From Candidatus Omnitrophota bacterium (GTDB lineage: Bacteria > Omnitrophota > Gorgyraeia > Zapsychrales > Fredricksoniimonadaceae): a stretch of DNA of 64,000 nt. Shown in pieces: positions 9,796 to 32,662 of this stretch (its first letter is position 1; each line of letters opens with the position of its first letter). Made by a program: the position numbers and the translations under genes. The notes beneath the pieces are model-generated. The model was not told the origin of the DNA, ran no database searches, and saw only the letters and a list, made by a program, of their open reading frames with translations. The stretch lies in assembly GCA_044225175.1 (NCBI GenBank), contig JBGAJA010000001.1, forward strand, positions 329,178-393,177, given 5' to 3'.

Positions 9796-10887
9796 ATGAC
9801 ATCACAAGAATCGCTGTTGGTATTAAATGCCATTCCTGGCATGAAAGGAGAGGTTATTCAAAAATTGATAAAGATTTTTGGAGGACCTAGAGAGATTTTT
9901 ATGCAGCAGCACCAGGATCTCTTGAATCTTGGAATTTCTTCTAATCTTGCAACAAATATTGTTCATTTTCCTAAAGATAAATTTTTGCAGGAAGAATTTA
10001 ATTTAATCCTGAAAAAAGGCATTAGAACAGTCACAATTTTTGATGAAGAATATCCTGATTCTTTAAAATCAATCGATCATGCTCCGCTTGTTCTTTATTT
10101 AAAAGGGGACTTAGGTCTTTTAATGTCGCCAGCCATAGCTTTGGTGGGGGCTAGAAAAGCAACTCAGTATGGATTAAAAGTAGCTGAAGAATTTGGTTGT
10201 AGTTTTAGTAAGGCTGGATTAACTGTGGTATCAGGGATGGCCTTAGGTATCGATACAGCCACGCATAAAGGTGTTTTAAAAATTGGAGGAAAAACCATTG
10301 CCGTTATGGGCTGCGGTCTAAATCATATTTATCCTAAAGAAAACATGGGTTTATTTGAAGAAATTGCAGAACATGGATTATTGATCTCTGAGTTCCCTAT
10401 GGATACTGCTCCATTAAGCTATAATTTCCCTCGAAGGAATCGCATCATTAGCGGATTGAGTCTAGCTACAGTTATAGTGGAAGCAGCTCAAAGAAGTGGC
10501 GCTTTAATCACAGTTGACTTTGCTTTAGCCCAGAATAAAGAAATTTTTGTTGTTCCAGGGAACATTGACAGCACATACTCTCAAGGAACTAATCGTCTGA
10601 TAAAGGAAGGGGCAAAGATAGCTTTATCTGCTCCAGAGGTCATGTTAGAACTTGGAATAACTATCAATGAAGAGTTAAAACAAGAGGAGCAAAAAGAGAA
10701 AATTCATGTTCCCTTATCAGTTGAAGAATATACAATCTATGAGTTAGTTAGCAATGAACCTCGTCATATTGATGTGATCTCCGTAAATTCTGGTCAAGAG
10801 ATTGGAGTTTTGATGGGGCAAATGTTAAACTTAGAACTTAAAGGCGTTATTAAACAATTGCCTGGACAGTATTATGTACGAATTTAA
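9796..10887 (+). CDS. dprA: DNA-processing protein DprA (Smf)
   Basis: 'LVGARKATQYGLKVAEEFGCSFSKAGLTVVSGMALGIDTATHKG' Rossmann core. Conserved dprA-topA synteny. Confidence 0.9.
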   Translation: MTSQESLLVLNAIPGMKGEVIQKLIKIFGGPREIFMQQHQDLLNLGISSNLATNIVHFPKDKFLQEEFNLILKKGIRTVTIFDEEYPDSLKSIDHAPLVLYLKGDLGLLMSPAIALVGARKATQYGLKVAEEFGCSFSKAGLTVVSGMALGIDTATHKGVLKIGGKTIAVMGCGLNHIYPKENMGLFEEIAEHGLLISEFPMDTAPLSYNFPRRNRIISGLSLATVIVEAAQRSGALITVDFALAQNKEIFVVPGNIDSTYSQGTNRLIKEGAKIALSAPEVMLELGITINEELKQEEQKEKIHVPLSVEEYTIYELVSNEPRHIDVISVNSGQEIGVLMGQMLNLELKGVIKQLPGQYYVRI

Positions 10888-24745: not shown

Positions 24746-27700
24746 ATGCTTAAGATTTATTGCTTCCGAAGGACTCTGTGCCTGGGACTAATTTTTGCTT
24801 TTTTGCTTAATACCATTGGCCCATTGCCAGCTTATGCTCACGAACCTCGCCTCCGGAACCTCGTAGGTTCCGAAGGCCAGGTTCCGCAAGGTTTGCCTAA
24901 GCCTGGGGTCATGGTCCATCTAAGCGCCCCTGTAAATCCCCCTTTGCTCAAAGGAATCAAAGTCCATCCAGATAACCCTTTTAGGTTCGATTTTATCCTG
25001 GATACAGGGTATGTCTCCGTCGAGGATACAGATAATTTAAGGCAAGAATCCAGCCGTCTAATCAAGTACTTTTTAGCCTCTTTAACCACCCCAGAAGCCG
25101 ACCTATGGGTGAACCTAAGCCCCTATGAGAAGAATCGTATAGTTCCCGAAAGCTTTGGCCAAACCGAGATGGGCCGAGACCTCCTAGCCCAGGACTACAT
25201 GCTCAAACAAATCACAGCCAGTTTAATGTACCCAGAAGATGGGGTAGGAAAGAGGTTTTGGAAGAGAATCTATGAAGAATCGGCCAAAAGGTATGGAACA
25301 ACCAATATTCCGGTCAATACCTTCAATAAAGTATGGATAGTCCCTGAGAAGGCAGTAGTGTATGAGAATGCCAAGGCAGGGACGGCGTATGTGGTGGAAT
25401 CCAGGTTGAAGGTGATGTTGGAGGAGGATTATGTATCTGTGCAGAAACATTCAAAAACATTGTCGTCCCCGAATGTTTTAGTCGGGGACCTAGGACACGA
25501 GGGTGCTAGATTCCCGACAAAAGCATTCGGGAATGACAAGGATGTTAATATAGGTAATCAAATCATCCGCGAAATCGTCATCCCCGAATTAACCAAGGAA
25601 ATCAATGAAGGATCGAATTTCGCCCAATTGCGTCAGGTCTATAACAGTCTGATCCTGGCCACCTGGTACAAGAAGAAAATTAAAGATTCAATCTTTACGA
25701 AGGTTTATGTGGATCGGAATAAGGTTGTGGGTCTTGGGTATATGGGAGGTGAGCCACAACAAATCTACCAACGCTACCTGAATGCCTTCAAGAAAGGTGT
25801 TTACAATTATATCAAGGAAGAATCCGATCCAATTTCCCAGAAACGTGTCACAAGAAAATATTTTAGCGGAGGCACTACATTTAACGATCAAGCCATGAAT
25901 GCAGTATTTCATACTACCCAAGATGGTACAAAAATTATTAAGATGGCAATTGATAATTCAGTTATTGTTCAGGTTGGCATAAAAGATTTTGCTATGGCTA
26001 GTACTAAACTCAAATCTCCGTCTGATATATTGGTTTATACACCTGAAAATGGAGCCACTGTAAAAAAGGGTAGAATAACTGGAGCTAAGCCAGTTGAAAT
26101 TTTTCCCAACGCGATCTGGGCAACAAGAAATATATCTCAACTTGTACAAGGTAATGAATTTCTTGTAGATATTCCATTAACCAAGGATAAAAAATTTCGT
26201 CTTTTAGGAGTGGATTGGAATTTAAGAGGAGGATCTGAAGGAGAAAGAATAGTAGCGCAGTTTAGAAAAGAGGACGGAAATTATGTTTTAATAACTGCTT
26301 ACAATGAAGCAGGAGAAGTAATTTACGAAAAAGATATTGATTCAAAGATTGAACAAAACAAAGAAGCAAAAGTTTATACTCCTGGGTCAGGAGCAAAGAT
26401 TGAAAATGGAAAAATTGTAGGAAAACCCACTGATAAATTTCCTCAAAACGCAGCCACGCGAAGACTATTAGAGCTAAATTTAGAAGAGTTTTATTTAGAT
26501 GTCAAACTCAATAGTGGAGGACAACTAAATCTTTTTCAAGAGAATTGGTGGGGCAAGAAGACAGAGTATGCAGACCAAAGAGTAAGTGTTCATTTTAAGA
26601 AAGAAAAAGGAGCGTACCAACTAGTAGCTGCTTATGACAAAGACGGAAATCTCATTTATCCTATTTCTGAAGATGAACAAATCCAATTATTTATTCCTTC
26701 TGATAAAACTCGTATTGAAAATGGAAAAGTTATCGGTACGCCTAGTCAAACATATTCTAATAAACATACCGCCATTAAATCTATTGATCTTCCGGAGTTT
26801 TATATAAAACTCCGTCTTAATCAATACGGTGGGCTTAATATGTGGGGACAACAAATGGCTCCCCGAAAAGGCTATGAAAATGCTGAAGTTCTCGTTCATT
26901 TCAAAAAATTTGAAGATACATATACCGCCATAGCTATTTATGACGCAAATGGAGAACAAATCGAACAGGAAGCCCCTGAACAAGTCGTTATTTATATTCC
27001 CAAAGAAGGGACAAGGTTAGAGAACGGAAAGATTGTTGGTAAAGCTTCACGTACATATGACAGTAGAATTTGGGCGGCCCGTGAATTAATGACTGATATC
27101 GCAAATTCACCAGAAGAATTTTACACTGAATTGACTTTAACCGATAAGGGCGGCTTTTCTTTCTTTAGTAAATGGTGGGCATCAAAAAAAGGTTACGAAA
27201 AGGCAAAAATTACAGCTCACTTTCGAAAAGTTAAGAATGAGTATGATCTGGTCGCTGTATATGATTCTAATGGTCAAGAAATCTATAGCCAAAATAAACA
27301 ACAAGAAGGGAAGATAGAAATTTTTACCCCTCAAAATGGTTCGCATATCAAAGATGGATTGCTTCAAGCCGGTCAACCTGAAACTGTTTTGTATCATGCA
27401 AGATCTGTACCAACCTATCTTGAAGATCACCCTCTTGAAGAATTTTTTGTAAGAACACATTTGGATGATAAGGGTGGTTTTTATCTAATGGGAGAGCATT
27501 GGTGGACGAGTAAAAGTGGTTCTGAAAATGTAGAGGTGGTCGTCCACTTTAAGAAAAATGAAGAAGGACAATATGAGTTGGAAGCTGCTTATGACCAAAA
27601 AGGTCAAGATTTAACCGTTGAAAAAGAACCAATAAAGATCTATGCCTCTAGAAATGGAGCAACAATTGTTCAAGGGAAAATATCAGGACAACCTGTTAGT

Positions 27701-30700
27701 CAATTTCCTAAGAAGACGCAAGCGTTACGCTTATTGAAGCAGTTGGATAGTGAAGATATTTATCTAGAAGTCACTCTTAGTAATGATGGTGGTTTTCTTA
27801 TTAGTTCTTATCGTAAATTAGCTTTGCCAGGCTATGAAAATACAAAAGTATTACTTCATTTTCAAAATAAAAATTCAAAAAAGAACCTTATCAATGTATA
27901 TGACAGCCAAGGCAATGTTATCTGGGGAGAAATTTACGATAGTAAAACAAGAGTTTATATCGCAGACAATGAAGTAAAATTAAATGAAGGAAAGGTTGTT
28001 GGTCAACCGGCAGAAACATTTACTACTCAAAGGGATGCTATTAAATTTGTTACTGCAAGAAAAATTAAGGAATTTTATTTAACTACTCCACTCACATCAC
28101 AGGCAGGTATTTACTTAGGCAGAGATTTTTGGCAATCAGATAATATAAGAAAACACCAGAACTCACTTGCTACTCTCCATTTTCGTTTAAATGAAGGCTC
28201 CCAATATGAACTTGTAGCGAGCTATGATCAAGATGGTAGGCGGTTGAACTTAATAAAAGTTAAATCTGATGAGATTATTGAAATTCACACTTCCGAAGGT
28301 GGATCAAAAATAGAAAATGGGTTTATTGTAGGAGAACCAATCGAGATATCTTCTAGTAAACTTGCCGCACAGCAGATTGTATCAGCAATGAGTCACTCCG
28401 ATGTTTTTGTAAAAATGCGTATAGGAGAAATGGGCAAAATTAGTTTTATGGGGCATTGGGCAAGCAGGTCTAATTCTGCCAATAAAGAAGTGCATTCGCA
28501 TTTTAAAAAACAAGATATGAGATATGTGTTGGTTGCTGCCTATGAGGCTGGTCAGAAAATTTATCCGAAAGAAGAGAACGAACAGGATAAGATCAGTATT
28601 TATAGCGCACATACAGGGGCTGTAATTGAGGAAGGGAAAATTAAAGGTCAACCTATTGAAACATTTAGTGACAAGATTCAAGCGTCATTGACTATACAAT
28701 CAATGGGATTGACAGACTTTTTTGTAAAAATGCGTTTGGATGGACAGGGTAAGCTATATTTTCTTGGAAGACATTGGTGGGGAGGCAAGAAAGGTCATGA
28801 AGATGCAGAGGTTTTGATACATTTTAAAAAGAGTCCAGAAAAAGGTTATGAATTAATTGATGCCTATGATAATCAAGGTAATTTAATCTACCCTACTGGA
28901 AAAAGAGATCCTTATAGTGTAGAAAGAAAAAGATTTAACGTAATGATTGGGGCCGAAGAAGCTCAAAAATTACTAGAAACATTAGGGCTGGAGGCCACAT
29001 TTGGACTTCTTTCACGGGCACATGGCTTCACCCCAACATTCCTTGCTCAAACACTAACGGGTTATGCCGAGAAAATACAAAGTGAAGGTAATCAGTTTGG
29101 GTATGCTTCAAATCGTAGTTTTTCATTTGTTCAAGCGCGACAATCCAACGTTTTTAGTAAAATTGAGCCTGATAAGCTGGATGTAGTTGTCGAGACATTG
29201 ATAAGAAGCATGTATAAGGATGTTGTTGAAGATAATCATTTTCTTAATGTTTTAAGAGAGCAAAGTGAAAATCCTTCCAATGGAGACATGCTGCAAAAAG
29301 CTTATAAACAAGTAGCTGATTATTATGACCATCAATTAAAAATCGAAATGGGAGGCATTGATGAAACAGCTATTTTACCGAAACTATACCAGAGGATTGG
29401 CGCGCAGTTTTTAATTGATAGAAAGCATGCCATTCTAGCTGATGAACCTGGTTTAGGAAAAACACTAGAAGCGATCATGGCAGTTGTGAATGTGCCGGAA
29501 TTTGACAAAGATGTAAGAGATGCGGGTTATCGAGAAGGTGAAATGATAGAGCCAAAAGAGAAGATTTTAATTATTGCACCTAAAAGAGCAGCTGATCGTG
29601 TATGGAAAAGAGAAATCCAAGCATATACAACGGGTCGTTTAAAGGTTGAAGTAGTTAACCGATCAAAAATTCGTAGCCGTTCAACAGTAGATAAAAACCC
29701 CGAATTAAATCTAAAAAGAAGATTTGATAGAATCAAGCAGGCCCAAGTTCTTATTGTTAATCCTTATGCAATTGCAGGAGAAGATGGTAACGGATTGCTT
29801 TTAAGAGAACATCTTAAGCAGTTTAAATATAAGGTCATCATATTGGATGAAGCTCATAATATTCGTAATGAAAGTACATTGACTGATGCTGTCCGTGAAT
29901 TTGATGCTGAATATAAATTCGCTTTGACTGCGACTCCTTTGGTTGGACAAACAGTTGCAAAATTATTTAATTTACTTCAATGGCTATATCCAGAACGGTA
30001 TAAAGATAAATGGAACTTTTCAGTTAAATATGCTGGCAGAGAGAAGGCATTTTTATTAAGACAAGAGTTGCGGCCATTTTTGTTAAGACGAACAAAAGTG
30101 GATGTTACAGACATGCCTTTAAAGAATTATGTTAACGTTCCCGTAAGCCTTACTGATGAAGAAAGACAATTTTATTTAGAGGTTGCAAATTACTTCTCAA
30201 TCTGGATAAAAAGTTCTATTAGACAAAATGATCCAAAATATTATTTGAAGATTCTTTCTCAACTTTCTCGACTACGCTTAGCAGCCCTCAATACGGGATT
30301 GATTATTCGCCTTCAAAATAATGGAGAAAAGATTTTTGCTTATACTGGAGGAAGCTTCACTCTGGGCAATCGTAAGTATAGATTTACTAAAGAAAAGGAA
30401 GTTATTGTTGGTTTGAAGGATGAAGAGGGGCATGAATTTCGTTTTGAAAAAGGGAAGTCAGGTACTCAAGTTACTATTGATAAGAAAGTTTATGAAGTTC
30501 AGGTTAAGGATAATTTAAATCCAAGCCGGTATTTAGCTATTGATAAAATTATAGAGGAGAAAATAGCTAAAGGGGAAAAGGTTATTCTAAATACGAATTA
30601 TCGGGAAGTTGTTTTTCAATTAGCGGCTCGGTATAAACATTATGGGGTGAATTATGCATTTGGTGATATGACAAGCTCCCAAGTTGATAGTGAAATTGAA

Positions 30701-32662
30701 GCTTTTCAAGAAAATCCAGATCAGAAAATATTCATTGCTACTTATGGTTCTGGATCAGAAGCAATATCCTTAACTGCTGCTAATAATGTTATTGAAGTTG
30801 ATAAGCCCACATATCCTCTTGTGCGTATCCAAGCTAATGACCGTCCTCATCGTTGGGGACAGGATAAAATAGTAAATATTTATCGTTTAACGGGCATTGA
30901 TACGATTGATGAATATTTTGAATTCCAGCTTACACGATCAGAAGCGTTATTTCGTTTGCTTTTTGAAGTTGGTGAGCCATTGCCAAACTTTAATCAGGAA
31001 ATTATTAAGGAATTATTAAGGGAATTAAAATATCCCGACGAAATCATTGACCATTTTCTTAAGATACACGAAGGTTTAGGTGCTAAGGTGAATAATCAGC
31101 CTCCTGACACGGTCACCAATGAATTTATTGACCAGAGTTCTGGTATAAGTATGCGTTTCACTGATGGAAATATATCAGGACGATTTTCAACTAATCAAGG
31201 ATTTGTTGAACCTAAAACAACATCCCAATTAGTATCTATCGCTAAAGATTTAACAGATCCATCTAAGAAATTCTTAAGAAATTTTCTTGAGAAACGCCTA
31301 ACCGAAGAAATTAACCTCAAAGTTCCAATTAAGCAATCTGTCTTATGGTCGTTATTAAATGTTCTTATGCCACAATTGACAAAGGTTGATACGAACTATT
31401 CCATTGAACGTAATTTGGAAATTGGACGCATTGTTATCAGTCTACTTTTACAAAACCCGAGCCTTAAGTATGAGGATTTACTTGGATCTGTTAATGATCA
31501 ATTAAGCTTATCGAAAGCTTTATATTTCTTGGATGAGCGTAATATATTTAAGCTATTTTCTTTGCTCGGAGTTCTTGATCAACAATATTATTTTGATGGA
31601 GAGTTGCTTTCCTACGCATCTCCCTTAAAACTCGGCATTACTAACGGAAATCTTGTGTATACGGATGAAAAGATCGTTAATGCGATTGCTCCTGATAGAT
31701 ACCGTGAACCTAAGCTCAAAACTGATCCTAATCGTTCTTTTCAAAATTTAGCTCGAAGGTATCGATTTTTGACAAGAGAAGAAGAAATACGGTTAGGAAG
31801 GGAGGCTGGTAAAGGTAATTTGGCCGCCCGGGTAGCTTTAGTTGAAGCTCATTATTATTATATTGTGGATACAACCTATAGGATTATTCAAAGACAACTT
31901 AAGGAAAGAGCGCTTATATCTTCCTCGTTTTTTAAATTAGATAGAAAGACTTTATATGAAGATCTTTATGCTCTAGGTCAGAATGTCTTATATGAGCTTT
32001 CCAGCTCTTATTACATTGAATCAAAAACTATCAATTTCCGAAATTATGTAAGACCAAAATTTTTAAAAGCAATAATTGCAGAATTTTACCGTCAAATTCG
32101 TTTAGTAGATAAGGAAAAGAAAACTTTAGATGTTACGGTTGAGCCAAGGAAGGGTAGATCATTCATTCGTGCTGAAAATGTAAAATCTGATGAATATCTT
32201 TCTCCTATGAGTCTTAATCCGGAATCTTCTATAGCAATAGCTATAACTAAGATTTTAGAGGCAAATGGATACAGAGATCAAGAGATTCAAGCGTATTTTA
32301 TGGCAATGACTGAACAAATCGTTCCTAAAAAGATAGCGCATGATTTGAAGATTTCAATACGCCAGATTAGAAGCATCGTTGATGATGCAAAAATTATTTT
32401 ACAAGGATCAAAACAATTACAGCAAGACTTTCATTCCATAAAAGATGCAGATTCAGCAGATGAAGCAATGAAATCCAGAAAAGGGGGAATAGACTTTACA
32501 GATGATAAAATATCTTTGGGTGTCCAGAGAATTGGTGATGGTATTAAATTTAATATGGATCCCGCCATATTGAATCGCCTGCAAAATGCTCCTGGCTTTT
32601 ATCCGGTGATTATCAATATTGCTCCTCTTTCTGATTTAAATACTTTTTTGAGCTTAAATTAG
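24746..32662 (+). CDS. Giant multidomain protein (2638 aa): signal peptide + novel N-domain + 9 tandem ~107-aa repeats + SNF2-family ATPase + C-terminal sigma-70-like module
   Basis: SP MLKIYCFRRTLCLGLIFAFLLNTIGPLPAYA|HEP. The N-domain (aa ~40-375) is paralogous to 60607-62928. SNF2 motifs are 'ILADEPGLGKTLEAI', 'LDEAHNIRN' and 'QANDRPHRWGQ'. The C-terminus has sigma region 1.2/2 ('LTREEEIRLGREAGKGN..ARVALVEAH', 'GQNVLYEL..INFRNYVRPKFLKAII') and region 4-like ('HDLKISIRQIRSIVDDAKIIL'). Confidence 0.85.
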   Translation: MLKIYCFRRTLCLGLIFAFLLNTIGPLPAYAHEPRLRNLVGSEGQVPQGLPKPGVMVHLSAPVNPPLLKGIKVHPDNPFRFDFILDTGYVSVEDTDNLRQESSRLIKYFLASLTTPEADLWVNLSPYEKNRIVPESFGQTEMGRDLLAQDYMLKQITASLMYPEDGVGKRFWKRIYEESAKRYGTTNIPVNTFNKVWIVPEKAVVYENAKAGTAYVVESRLKVMLEEDYVSVQKHSKTLSSPNVLVGDLGHEGARFPTKAFGNDKDVNIGNQIIREIVIPELTKEINEGSNFAQLRQVYNSLILATWYKKKIKDSIFTKVYVDRNKVVGLGYMGGEPQQIYQRYLNAFKKGVYNYIKEESDPISQKRVTRKYFSGGTTFNDQAMNAVFHTTQDGTKIIKMAIDNSVIVQVGIKDFAMASTKLKSPSDILVYTPENGATVKKGRITGAKPVEIFPNAIWATRNISQLVQGNEFLVDIPLTKDKKFRLLGVDWNLRGGSEGERIVAQFRKEDGNYVLITAYNEAGEVIYEKDIDSKIEQNKEAKVYTPGSGAKIENGKIVGKPTDKFPQNAATRRLLELNLEEFYLDVKLNSGGQLNLFQENWWGKKTEYADQRVSVHFKKEKGAYQLVAAYDKDGNLIYPISEDEQIQLFIPSDKTRIENGKVIGTPSQTYSNKHTAIKSIDLPEFYIKLRLNQYGGLNMWGQQMAPRKGYENAEVLVHFKKFEDTYTAIAIYDANGEQIEQEAPEQVVIYIPKEGTRLENGKIVGKASRTYDSRIWAARELMTDIANSPEEFYTELTLTDKGGFSFFSKWWASKKGYEKAKITAHFRKVKNEYDLVAVYDSNGQEIYSQNKQQEGKIEIFTPQNGSHIKDGLLQAGQPETVLYHARSVPTYLEDHPLEEFFVRTHLDDKGGFYLMGEHWWTSKSGSENVEVVVHFKKNEEGQYELEAAYDQKGQDLTVEKEPIKIYASRNGATIVQGKISGQPVSQFPKKTQALRLLKQLDSEDIYLEVTLSNDGGFLISSYRKLALPGYENTKVLLHFQNKNSKKNLINVYDSQGNVIWGEIYDSKTRVYIADNEVKLNEGKVVGQPAETFTTQRDAIKFVTARKIKEFYLTTPLTSQAGIYLGRDFWQSDNIRKHQNSLATLHFRLNEGSQYELVASYDQDGRRLNLIKVKSDEIIEIHTSEGGSKIENGFIVGEPIEISSSKLAAQQIVSAMSHSDVFVKMRIGEMGKISFMGHWASRSNSANKEVHSHFKKQDMRYVLVAAYEAGQKIYPKEENEQDKISIYSAHTGAVIEEGKIKGQPIETFSDKIQASLTIQSMGLTDFFVKMRLDGQGKLYFLGRHWWGGKKGHEDAEVLIHFKKSPEKGYELIDAYDNQGNLIYPTGKRDPYSVERKRFNVMIGAEEAQKLLETLGLEATFGLLSRAHGFTPTFLAQTLTGYAEKIQSEGNQFGYASNRSFSFVQARQSNVFSKIEPDKLDVVVETLIRSMYKDVVEDNHFLNVLREQSENPSNGDMLQKAYKQVADYYDHQLKIEMGGIDETAILPKLYQRIGAQFLIDRKHAILADEPGLGKTLEAIMAVVNVPEFDKDVRDAGYREGEMIEPKEKILIIAPKRAADRVWKREIQAYTTGRLKVEVVNRSKIRSRSTVDKNPELNLKRRFDRIKQAQVLIVNPYAIAGEDGNGLLLREHLKQFKYKVIILDEAHNIRNESTLTDAVREFDAEYKFALTATPLVGQTVAKLFNLLQWLYPERYKDKWNFSVKYAGREKAFLLRQELRPFLLRRTKVDVTDMPLKNYVNVPVSLTDEERQFYLEVANYFSIWIKSSIRQNDPKYYLKILSQLSRLRLAALNTGLIIRLQNNGEKIFAYTGGSFTLGNRKYRFTKEKEVIVGLKDEEGHEFRFEKGKSGTQVTIDKKVYEVQVKDNLNPSRYLAIDKIIEEKIAKGEKVILNTNYREVVFQLAARYKHYGVNYAFGDMTSSQVDSEIEAFQENPDQKIFIATYGSGSEAISLTAANNVIEVDKPTYPLVRIQANDRPHRWGQDKIVNIYRLTGIDTIDEYFEFQLTRSEALFRLLFEVGEPLPNFNQEIIKELLRELKYPDEIIDHFLKIHEGLGAKVNNQPPDTVTNEFIDQSSGISMRFTDGNISGRFSTNQGFVEPKTTSQLVSIAKDLTDPSKKFLRNFLEKRLTEEINLKVPIKQSVLWSLLNVLMPQLTKVDTNYSIERNLEIGRIVISLLLQNPSLKYEDLLGSVNDQLSLSKALYFLDERNIFKLFSLLGVLDQQYYFDGELLSYASPLKLGITNGNLVYTDEKIVNAIAPDRYREPKLKTDPNRSFQNLARRYRFLTREEEIRLGREAGKGNLAARVALVEAHYYYIVDTTYRIIQRQLKERALISSSFFKLDRKTLYEDLYALGQNVLYELSSSYYIESKTINFRNYVRPKFLKAIIAEFYRQIRLVDKEKKTLDVTVEPRKGRSFIRAENVKSDEYLSPMSLNPESSIAIAITKILEANGYRDQEIQAYFMAMTEQIVPKKIAHDLKISIRQIRSIVDDAKIILQGSKQLQQDFHSIKDADSADEAMKSRKGGIDFTDDKISLGVQRIGDGIKFNMDPAILNRLQNAPGFYPVIINIAPLSDLNTFLSLN
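26020..28920 (+). repeat. Nine in-frame tandem repeats of ~320 nt (~107 aa) inside the giant gene
   Basis: Each unit: '[IV]Y.P..G..IENGK[IV]VG.P...F......L......EFY......GG.......W....GYE.A.V..HFKK....Y.L.A.YD..G..IY'. Unit starts fall near 26023, 26371, 26681, 26983, 27313, 27633, 27948, 28280 and 28593. Confidence 0.8.

Follow-up and report, generated by a model that had tools for sequence, protein, structure and literature searches.

A 2,638-residue Omnitrophota protein with a SNF2 motor and a divergent sigma-like module inside a putative export framework

Why should a protein that begins with a signal peptide contain a DNA motor and a relative of bacterial sigma factors? The question is raised by one gene in a stretch of 64,000 nucleotides from a Candidatus Omnitrophota bacterium (GenBank assembly GCA_044225175.1, contig JBGAJA010000001.1, positions 329,178 to 393,177), termed the window below and numbered from its own first letter. 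The open reading frame (ORF) concerned, at 24746..32662 on the + strand, spans ~7.9 kb, is free of interruption, as a preliminary description made from the sequence had stated, and codes for 2,638 amino acids (aa); its product is called the giant here. The reading favored, with a probability of roughly 0.45, is that the giant belongs to an undescribed carrier family specific to Omnitrophota and is a modular protein exported through Sec, that its cargo is a SNF2 motor directed at RNA polymerase, and that it probably acts in another cell. Overlooked in the preliminary description were a conserved 60-aa C-terminal tail, the complete lack of cysteine (Cys) once the signal peptide is discounted, and the fact that the giant is one of a huge family of paralogs. 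The modules and the combination of cargo are new; the kind of protein, modular, exported and effector-type, is a known one.

The framework and its family

The domain that follows the signal peptide (the N-domain) is not an oddity of this gene but the defining module of a putative carrier family, and the subject of the finding shifts with it. The parts of the giant that are common to the family, together with a second member in the window, are as follows.

24746..24838, + strand: signal peptide, aa 1-31, with n-region K3/R8/R9, h-region aa 11-25 and c-region PLPAYA↓HE (the arrow marks the putative cut)
24893..25873, + strand: family N-domain, aa 50-376, 'LPKPGVMVHLS...RKYFSGG', ~330 aa, alpha+beta, no known fold
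25886..25996, + strand: N-side junction with DQAM (aa 381-384) and DFAM (aa 414-417), both [DNSE]xAM motifs, and a partial match to the tail hidden Markov model (HMM)
32459..32470, + strand: C-side junction, DEAM (aa 2572-2575), also present in orthologs P0125 and P0127
32480..32659, + strand: family C-terminal tail, aa 2579-2638, 'KGGIDF...IKFNMDPAILNRLQNAPGFYPVIINIAPLSDLNTFLSLN', tail HMM E=3.4e-25
60607..62928, + strand: paralog of 773 aa with signal peptide, N-domain, unrelated Lys-rich cargo and tail, and zero Cys

Comparison across hundreds of paralogs shows this framework to be constant and the cargo in the middle to be variable. As far as sequence comparison goes, N-domain and tail define an undescribed carrier family that is phylum-wide in Omnitrophota, with several copies per genome. 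That the N-domain has a second copy in the window had been seen before and holds, for a domain of ~330 aa: those of the giant and of the paralog at 60607..62928 share 47% identity (tblastn, E=6e-102). Some 90 columns are invariant in an alignment of 22 paralogous sequences. A Pfam search over aa 1-428 gave no match at E<=10, and for the N-domain there is no model in Pfam or NCBIfam and no fold relative in the PDB; modeling predicts a novel fold, alpha+beta with long helices.

The tail, of ~60 aa, has the consensus 'GGIDL...IKFH.DP..L..LQNAPGF.PVIINIQP...FLG'. An HMM built from 55 loci of other genomes only finds it in the giant (E=3.4e-25) and in the paralog (E=3.4e-12), with no other match among 279 segments of the window. 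The same HMM partly matches, with the first half of the tail, aa ~375-410 of the giant (window ~25868-25975), i.e. directly after the N-domain, and both ends of the cargo are marked by a short motif. Of 60 members, 50 have [DNSE]xAM no more than 90 aa past the N-domain (~0.09 expected) and 32 have it in the 40 aa that precede the tail (~0.04 expected), an enrichment of ~10-fold. A protein nearly without cargo (P0118, 438 aa) consists essentially of N-domain and tail and has no [DNSE]xAM at its junction. The partial match of the tail HMM suggests that the two cargo junctions are related, perhaps through duplication of a flank about the site of insertion in an ancestor that, like P0118, had no cargo. 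A search for the tail apart from the N-domain returned short fragments only, mostly on short contigs. The giant itself has every element: signal peptide with N-domain, tail, [DNSE]xAM at both junctions and Cys depletion (see below). The cargo of the paralog is unrecognised, with no match in Pfam, NCBIfam or PADLOC, and includes a very Lys-rich stretch, 'KKEKETKVKLDPKKEKKLKQSPKVIPKKMPQKTSKNKIIIKKKDLK'.

The family is large. At least 1,554 homologs of the N-domain are present in the protein database, and among the 29 of 120 matches that carry a name all but one are labeled Candidatus Omnitrophica/Omnitrophota. A scan of GTDB genomes gave at least 592 matches, at least 587 of them confirmed; single metagenome-assembled genomes supply 4-8 of the best 80 loci, and in the source genome of the window there are three copies or more, P0002 being probably one of them beside the giant and its 773-aa paralog. 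Full ORFs at family loci reach more than 3,600 aa, with giants from 1,000 aa upward, and most of the complete ones share the ~60-aa tail. Fused to the N-domain are protein kinases, several methyltransferases, HAD, HEAT repeats, HATPase, a sugar transferase and shikimate dehydrogenase, and further cargo includes GNAT with a kinase, and AAA_5. As to labels outside the phylum, one locus (L074, DYOU01000064.1) is assigned to Candidatus Elulimicrobium (Patescibacteria group, NCBI taxonomy), another, on a short contig (P0089), is labeled Minisyncoccia, and several carry the label 'uncultured Planctomycetales'. The Elulimicrobium and Minisyncoccia labels reflect either mis-binning or a family slightly wider than Omnitrophota.

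Could the long ORF be an artefact, an assembly chimera or fused pseudogenes that join separate genes? The possibility of a chimeric join had been raised early, and all that speaks for it is the unusual length and a step in GC content (0.44 in the N-domain coding region, 24893-25873; 0.34-0.37, or ~0.35, in the remainder of the gene). The order of modules, however, repeats in independent assemblies from NCBI, JGI, ENA and Logan (P0122, P0125/L070, P0127, P0130 and others), the two ends of the ORF, N-domain and tail, belong to a single family signature, and an ORF of 7.9 kb at 37% GC is not expected by chance. An artefact is effectively excluded and is the least probable of all the explanations considered here. 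The GC step itself could come from amino-acid constraint or from exchange between paralogs.

A motor, repeats and a very divergent sigma relative as cargo

Between the junctions of the giant lie five modules.

26033..28909, + strand: nine tandem repeats of ~105 aa, aa 430-1388, matched by the repeat HMM at E=1e-34 to 1e-40
28919..29380, + strand: conserved segment preceding SNF2, aa 1392-1545, homologous in L070 (E=4.5e-21)
29387..30859, + strand: SNF2 ATPase, aa 1548-2038, with N-lobe 1548-1839, an insertion and C-lobe 1932-2038
30926..31690, + strand: conserved module, aa 2061-2315, function unknown, lying after SNF2 and before the sigma-like module
31766..32428, + strand: divergent sigma-70-family module, aa 2341-2561, with regions 1.2/2.1 best kept, 2.2-2.4 degenerate, 3 absent or short and 4 helix-turn-helix-like

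The SNF2 part was rightly described as complete, and its proposed range of 1390-2000 was roughly right. Both lobes exceed the Pfam gathering thresholds, SNF2-rel_dom (PF00176) over aa 1548-1839 at 121.8 bits (gathering 24.9, E=4e-35) and Helicase_C (PF00271) over aa 1932-2038 at 39.3 bits (gathering 23.5, E=8e-10). Motifs I (DEPGLGKT), II (LDEAHNIRN), III (LTATPL) and VI (QANDRPHRWGQ) are intact in the translation, and the catalytic motifs are under conservation in ~30 orthologs. On these sequence grounds it looks like a working DNA motor. The natural comparison is RapA/HepA, a bacterial SNF2 ATPase that binds RNA polymerase; for the motor of the giant such coupling is presumed, by way of the fused sigma-like module. 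RapA differs in being a cytoplasmic protein of ~970 aa with no sigma domain. The NCBIfam RapA model (PRK04914) gives the giant 11.8 bits with a cut-off of 576, and the best partial SNF2 models are those of other families.

NCBIfam and PADLOC matches to the SNF2 core are partial and at the level of the domain only. Among them are those to ZorD, DpdE and DrmD, with E down to 8e-27, which would accord with an anti-phage defense helicase, the SNF2 protein of a Zorya, DISARM, Dpd or BREX-type system. Yet these matches extend over the generic SNF2 core only, at 45.8-79.8 bits where the cut-offs are 1,029-1,500, and partner genes are absent: the neighboring genes for M3 peptidase, SpoU, TPM, LemA and iPGM score nothing in PADLOC. 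A signal peptide and carrier framework are also foreign to Zorya, DISARM, Dpd and BREX systems, and a role in defense can be set aside as effectively excluded.

Motor and sigma-like module travel together. An exhaustive HMMER search recovered the giant itself (P0121) and ~30 cluster representatives (50% identity), many of them of 2,000-4,200 aa, in which alignment spans the pre-SNF2 segment, SNF2 and the whole C-region; all representatives with a name are from Omnitrophota. (A word-indexed search with aa 2060-2575, covering targets up to ~1.8x the query length, gave no match, an artefact of that limit, and a genome scan with aa 1392-2638 as a single protein gave no confirmed relative.) SNF2, the module of unknown function and the sigma-like module also occur as a cassette free of the framework, in P0123, P0124, P0126, P0128, P0129, P0131, P0135 and P0137. 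These are Omnitrophota proteins with normal Cys content; several match the repeat HMM, and some have other signal-like N-termini and some have none. By such comparisons the SNF2-sigma cassette is shown to be a conserved Omnitrophota unit in its own right. The covalent SNF2-sigma fusion is unusual, as the preliminary description had it; public records label cassette proteins only 'DEAD/DEAH box helicase' or 'SNF2 family helicase'.

The nine tandem repeats were correctly noted; each is matched individually within the E range given above. Repeats 2-9 have 22-33% identity to the first and repetition is not detectable at the DNA level, and the array is therefore old. The same repeat is present at least 13-14 times in ortholog L070/P0125 and occurs in other cassette proteins, and its profile has no relative in the PDB or Pfam. 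Ortholog alignments take in the pre-SNF2 segment from query position ~3-14, and Pfam has no match to it. The module at aa 2061-2315 is kept in the ~30 cluster representatives; profile searches of PDB and Pfam found no relative, and it is not sigma-like. One framework member (L043, JADFXH010000003.1, an ORF of 2,505 aa) has eight different repeats of ~115 aa and a distant SNF2, with a motif resembling those of S-adenosylmethionine (SAM)-dependent methyltransferases, 'LDLASGPS', at the place where the sigma-like module would be expected; homology of its ~115-aa repeats to those of the giant is not demonstrable (1.6%).

The sigma-like module requires more care. For the giant by itself the similarity is weak, Pfam giving no match to Sigma70 r2, r3 or r4 and, as its sole match, Sigma70_r1_2 with E=0.15 (0.019 for the fragment by itself; 12.5-16 bits, cut-off 22), and the aromatic/basic block of regions 2.3-2.4 is not kept ('INFRNYVRPKFLKAII' aligned with 'FRFSTYATWWIRQTIE'); these points count against the RNA-polymerase part of the favored reading. 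With the single fragment, phmmer against PDB sequences reached RpoS at E~1, hhalign against four E. coli sigmas aligned region 4 with P=0.066, and a targeted blastp paired RpoS aa 70-129 with aa 2341-2400 of the giant (pairwise E=1.4e-4). Single-sequence AlphaFold2 (AF2) on aa 2300-2638 gave no usable model (mean per-residue confidence, pLDDT, 39).

The picture from profiles is different. When an alignment (A5) of the segment equivalent to giant aa 2310-2575 in 22 sequences was compared by hhalign with E. coli RpoS/RpoD/RpoH/FliA, 197 columns aligned, from region 1.2 to 4.2, with a probability of 95.8% (E=8.2e-9). In the PDB (hmmsearch) A5 finds almost only sigma factors, at 1e-6 to 4e-3: RpoS at 1e-6, SigA at 9e-6 over profile positions 21-141, a further sigma at 1e-4 over positions 135-240 (regions 3 and 4), Sigma-K at 2e-4 and Thermus SigA region 2 at ~4e-3. 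Negative controls, with the sigma alignment set against the adjacent module of unknown function or a repeat, stand at 0.1%. Pfam matches among the 22 orthologous segments are sparse: region 1.2 in six (best E=9.4e-5), Sigma70_r4 in one (E=1.3e-3), Sigma70_r4_2 in one (E=0.022), and Sigma70_r2 (PF04542) in none of them, nor in the giant. Because the A5 profile matches and the controls are clean, aa 2341-2561 is regarded as a true but very divergent sigma-70-family homolog, evident at the profile level only. The preliminary description had placed a sigma-like C-terminus at 2240-2560, essentially enclosing this module. Homology stood, by way of the 22-ortholog profile; the single-sequence test for Pfam r2/r4 failed, and letting that absence decide the matter, as had been proposed, would wrongly have rejected sigma homology. 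The idea of a 'complete' sigma did not survive, since the module lacks region 3 and, within region 2.3, the melting residues.

Likeness to RpoS, SigA and sigma-K is thus co-linear from region 1.2 through 4.2, with region 1.2/2.1 clearly kept, but the module of the giant differs in sitting at the end of a 2,638-aa protein predicted to be exported, in its lack of region 3 and in the melting/-10 block, where 'TYATWWIRQ' of sigma-70 is replaced by 'YL..RLNPRMY' in the family and 'NYVRPKFLKA' in the giant. Since melting residues are lost while regions 1.2/2.1/2.2 and 4 are kept, we infer that the module would dock on the polymerase core rather than open promoters. A sigma-like module also points to bacterial RNA polymerase and not to eukaryotic chromatin, so that the earlier suggestion of a chromatin-directed effector is not upheld. 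One ortholog (P0122, 2,578 aa) has, at aa ~880-1120, upstream of its repeats, a second sigma-like module that is nearer to canonical ('STYGAYWIRG...TPERVRMIE'; hhalign 91.6%, E=8e-7), so some cassette proteins have two sigma homologs.

Where the protein may act, and on what

The sole hydrophobic segment of the giant is aa 11-29, with the basic residues K3/R8/R9 before it and PLPAYA↓HE after it. Assessment as a signal peptide was heuristic, by the layout of n-, h- and c-regions, and not from a dedicated predictor; on that footing the signal-peptide-like N-terminus first pointed out in the preliminary description is confirmed, its layout being kept in 147-166 of the 170 N-complete family members. 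A hydrophobic core is present in 166 of these, a net-positive n-region in 161 and a small-x-small site in 147, with a family preference for A/V at -3, A at -1 and Q at +1. (Export by the twin-arginine translocation pathway was suggested by 'FRRT' in the giant and ruled out since paralogs have no twin-arginine motif.)

Cys content provides a different type of evidence. The mature giant has none in 2,607 residues, against a background of 1.02% in 48 other ORFs of the window (P~2e-12), and the paralog at 60607..62928 also has none. In family N-domains the figure is 0.03% and in the cargo regions downstream 0.2%. Nine proteins with the framework show 0.16% over the homologous region from SNF2 to sigma, and the figure for ten proteins without it is 0.72% (Fisher p=8.6e-9). 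Because the same cassette is poorer in Cys inside the framework than outside it, Cys avoidance appears, from these sequences, to be a property imposed by the framework. Passengers of type V secretion are Cys-poor, and by analogy with them such avoidance would be expected of chains that cross or reside in an extracytoplasmic compartment.

At issue is whether the giant stays in the cell that makes it. As a transcription or remodeling machine of the producer cell, membrane-tethered or cytoplasmic, it would have an N-terminal segment that is an uncleaved anchor or irrelevant, an N-domain and tail that form a scaffold at the inner face of the membrane, and the cell's own RNA polymerase and DNA as its target, like a RapA fused to sigma. 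The occurrence of the cassette in Omnitrophota proteins that lack the framework, some of which lack an N-terminal hydrophobic segment also, is in favor of this, as are the need of every type of cargo for cytoplasmic cofactors and the housekeeping neighbors with no secretion genes adjacent. However, a positive n-region together with a small-x-small site (mostly A-x-A, then Q) predicts N-in/C-out topology with trans-side cleavage, the chain has no further hydrophobic segment that could return it, and a purely cytoplasmic location does not explain why, in one and the same cassette, Cys is depleted when the framework is present. A machine of the producer cell is decidedly unlikely. The two locations entertained in the preliminary description, a membrane-tethered machine and an exported effector, accordingly fare differently, the second fitting better because the conserved AxA site implies trans-side cleavage, no second membrane segment exists and Cys depletion goes with the framework.

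Export need not mean delivery. If the giant were retained as a surface or periplasmic protein, N-domain and tail would anchor it to the envelope, the repeats and enzyme-like domains would serve adhesion or a coat, and the catalytic modules would be inactive or moonlighting, e.g. in binding extracellular DNA. Signal peptide and Cys depletion suit this, long repeat arrays are typical of surface proteins, and coats or adhesins are among the roles proposed for Omnitrophota giant proteins (PMC10066038). Set against it are the intactness of all SNF2 catalytic motifs and their conservation in ~30 orthologs, a family cargo made up mostly of ATP-, SAM- or acetyl-CoA-dependent enzymes that have no substrate outside the cell, and the finding of no adhesin-type Pfam domain in the giant. 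A retained surface protein is considered unlikely.

In the favored reading, of an exported protein with a polymerase-directed motor, the signal peptide would lead the unfolded chain through Sec and be cut at AYA↓HE, and Cys would be avoided almost totally because the chain passes through, or stays in, an extracytoplasmic compartment while unfolded or export-competent. Docking on the RNA polymerase core, not initiation, would be the task of the sigma-like module, which would tether the SNF2 translocase to the polymerase, a RapA-like function reached in another way. Since SNF2, kinase, methyltransferase and acetyltransferase cargo need cytoplasmic cofactors, delivery into another cell is proposed, as a speculation; dependence on ATP, SAM and acetyl-CoA is hard to reconcile with an extracellular end-point. 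The recipient might be a bacterial cell that serves the ultra-small producer as host or prey; once inside, the cargo might be cut free at the DxAM junctions, and the SNF2-sigma unit might go on to stall, strip or sequester the host RNA polymerase. This boldest version, with N-domain and tail as an unrecognised secretion or translocation route for entire enzymes of cytoplasmic type, in this case an RNA-polymerase-hijacking SNF2-sigma machine, into hosts or prey and with cargo excised at DxAM, is rather unlikely as a whole; were it true, a sigma-factor homolog would for the first time serve as an injected effector module.

Several considerations, beyond the weak single-sequence sigma similarity, weigh against the favored reading. 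Sec export with cleavage at AYA↓HE is a prediction from features of the sequence. N-domain and tail are like no known secretion signal, and the tail is without confident structure in an AF2 model. Four cassette proteins (P0128, P0131, P0135 and P0137) have no N-terminal hydrophobic segment whatever, and because of this the cassette may have a housekeeping role in the cytoplasm, in which event the exported version need not be an anti-host weapon. The genes around that of the giant are ordinary housekeeping ones, and no secretion, translocation or protease gene adjoins it or that of ortholog P0127.

Omnitrophota are abundant, uncultured and thought to be predators or parasites. A carrier framework that appears to export enzymes able to work only inside cells would supply candidate effectors of host manipulation and a new route of delivery. 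If docked on RNA polymerase, the giant would illustrate a new way of coupling an ATPase of the chromatin-remodeler type to bacterial transcription. From a practical perspective, framework-dependent loss of Cys is a simple sequence signature for finding other exported cargo.

Parallels and gene context

In its logic the giant resembles several known systems, and it has no module homologous to any of theirs. With TpsA/CdiA and polymorphic toxins it has in common a Sec signal, an N-proximal domain shared across paralogs, long repeats and a variable functional end; it differs in that its N-domain, alpha+beta with long helices and without a Pfam match, is not the beta-helix of two-partner secretion, no TpsB-like gene is nearby, and a conserved tail and junction motifs are added. 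MARTX toxins likewise have conserved N- and C-terminal regions around a variable effector cassette, and their effector domains act in the cytoplasm, freed by cleavage between domains. However, they use type I secretion with no Sec signal and have glycine-rich repeats and a cysteine protease domain of their own, none of which is present in the giant. Type IX cargo combines an N-terminal Sec signal with a conserved C-terminal element of ~60-80 aa, but the tail of the giant has no match to Por_Secre_tail, the only such match being within a repeat (aa 831-859) at 17.7 bits, the cut-off being 23.

The CRN effectors of oomycetes have a signal peptide, a conserved N-terminal module, a short junction motif and highly variable C-terminal cargo that acts on host nucleic-acid machinery (PMC3607596, PMC4695088). 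They are eukaryotic, are unrelated in sequence and lack a conserved C-terminal tail, so the analogy is of logic only. Omnitrophota are described (PMC10066038, bioRxiv 10.1101/2023.11.21.568195, 10.64898/2026.06.07.730766) as ultra-small with predatory or parasitic traits and as having long proteins that join signal peptides to cytoplasmic-type domains. The published giants (Archaeovorin and Dockerin types, and very long proteins of Gorgyraeia) share with the present one the phylum, signal peptides with cytoplasmic-type enzyme domains and proposed roles toward host or prey; they are longer, at 10,000 to more than 100,000 aa, and have SecA-DEAD domains and many transmembrane helices. Term look-ups in these Omnitrophota papers brought up no mention of the N-domain/tail framework, a SNF2 domain or a sigma module, and the literature searches made turned up no account of the framework or of a SNF2-sigma fusion.

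On its 5′ side the gene of the giant is preceded by those for arginyl-tRNA synthetase, RecJ, an M3 peptidase and a SpoU methylase, and on its 3′ side it is followed by those for TPM, LemA, iPGM, a GGDEF protein and PrmA. Synteny with the locus of ortholog P0127 was not found, and a scan for promoters and terminators gave no signal exceeding shuffled expectation. The window has a GC content of ~37%, and 54 of its 55 ORFs of at least 120 aa are on the + strand; GC skew is positive in all 2-kb bins (window 1-63000), its cumulative value climbing steadily, and the whole looks like one co-directional leading-strand block. Elsewhere in it, at 49425-54648, is a complete-looking SUF/Fe-S assembly block (SufB, SufC, SufD, a SufS-like class-V aminotransferase and a NifU-like protein) with a MoaA-type radical SAM gene after it, all ordinary housekeeping genes. 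Directly upstream of the paralog, at 55678-60449, are genes for two tandem TPR-repeat proteins of ~610 aa and a GHL10-type glycosyl-hydrolase-like protein.

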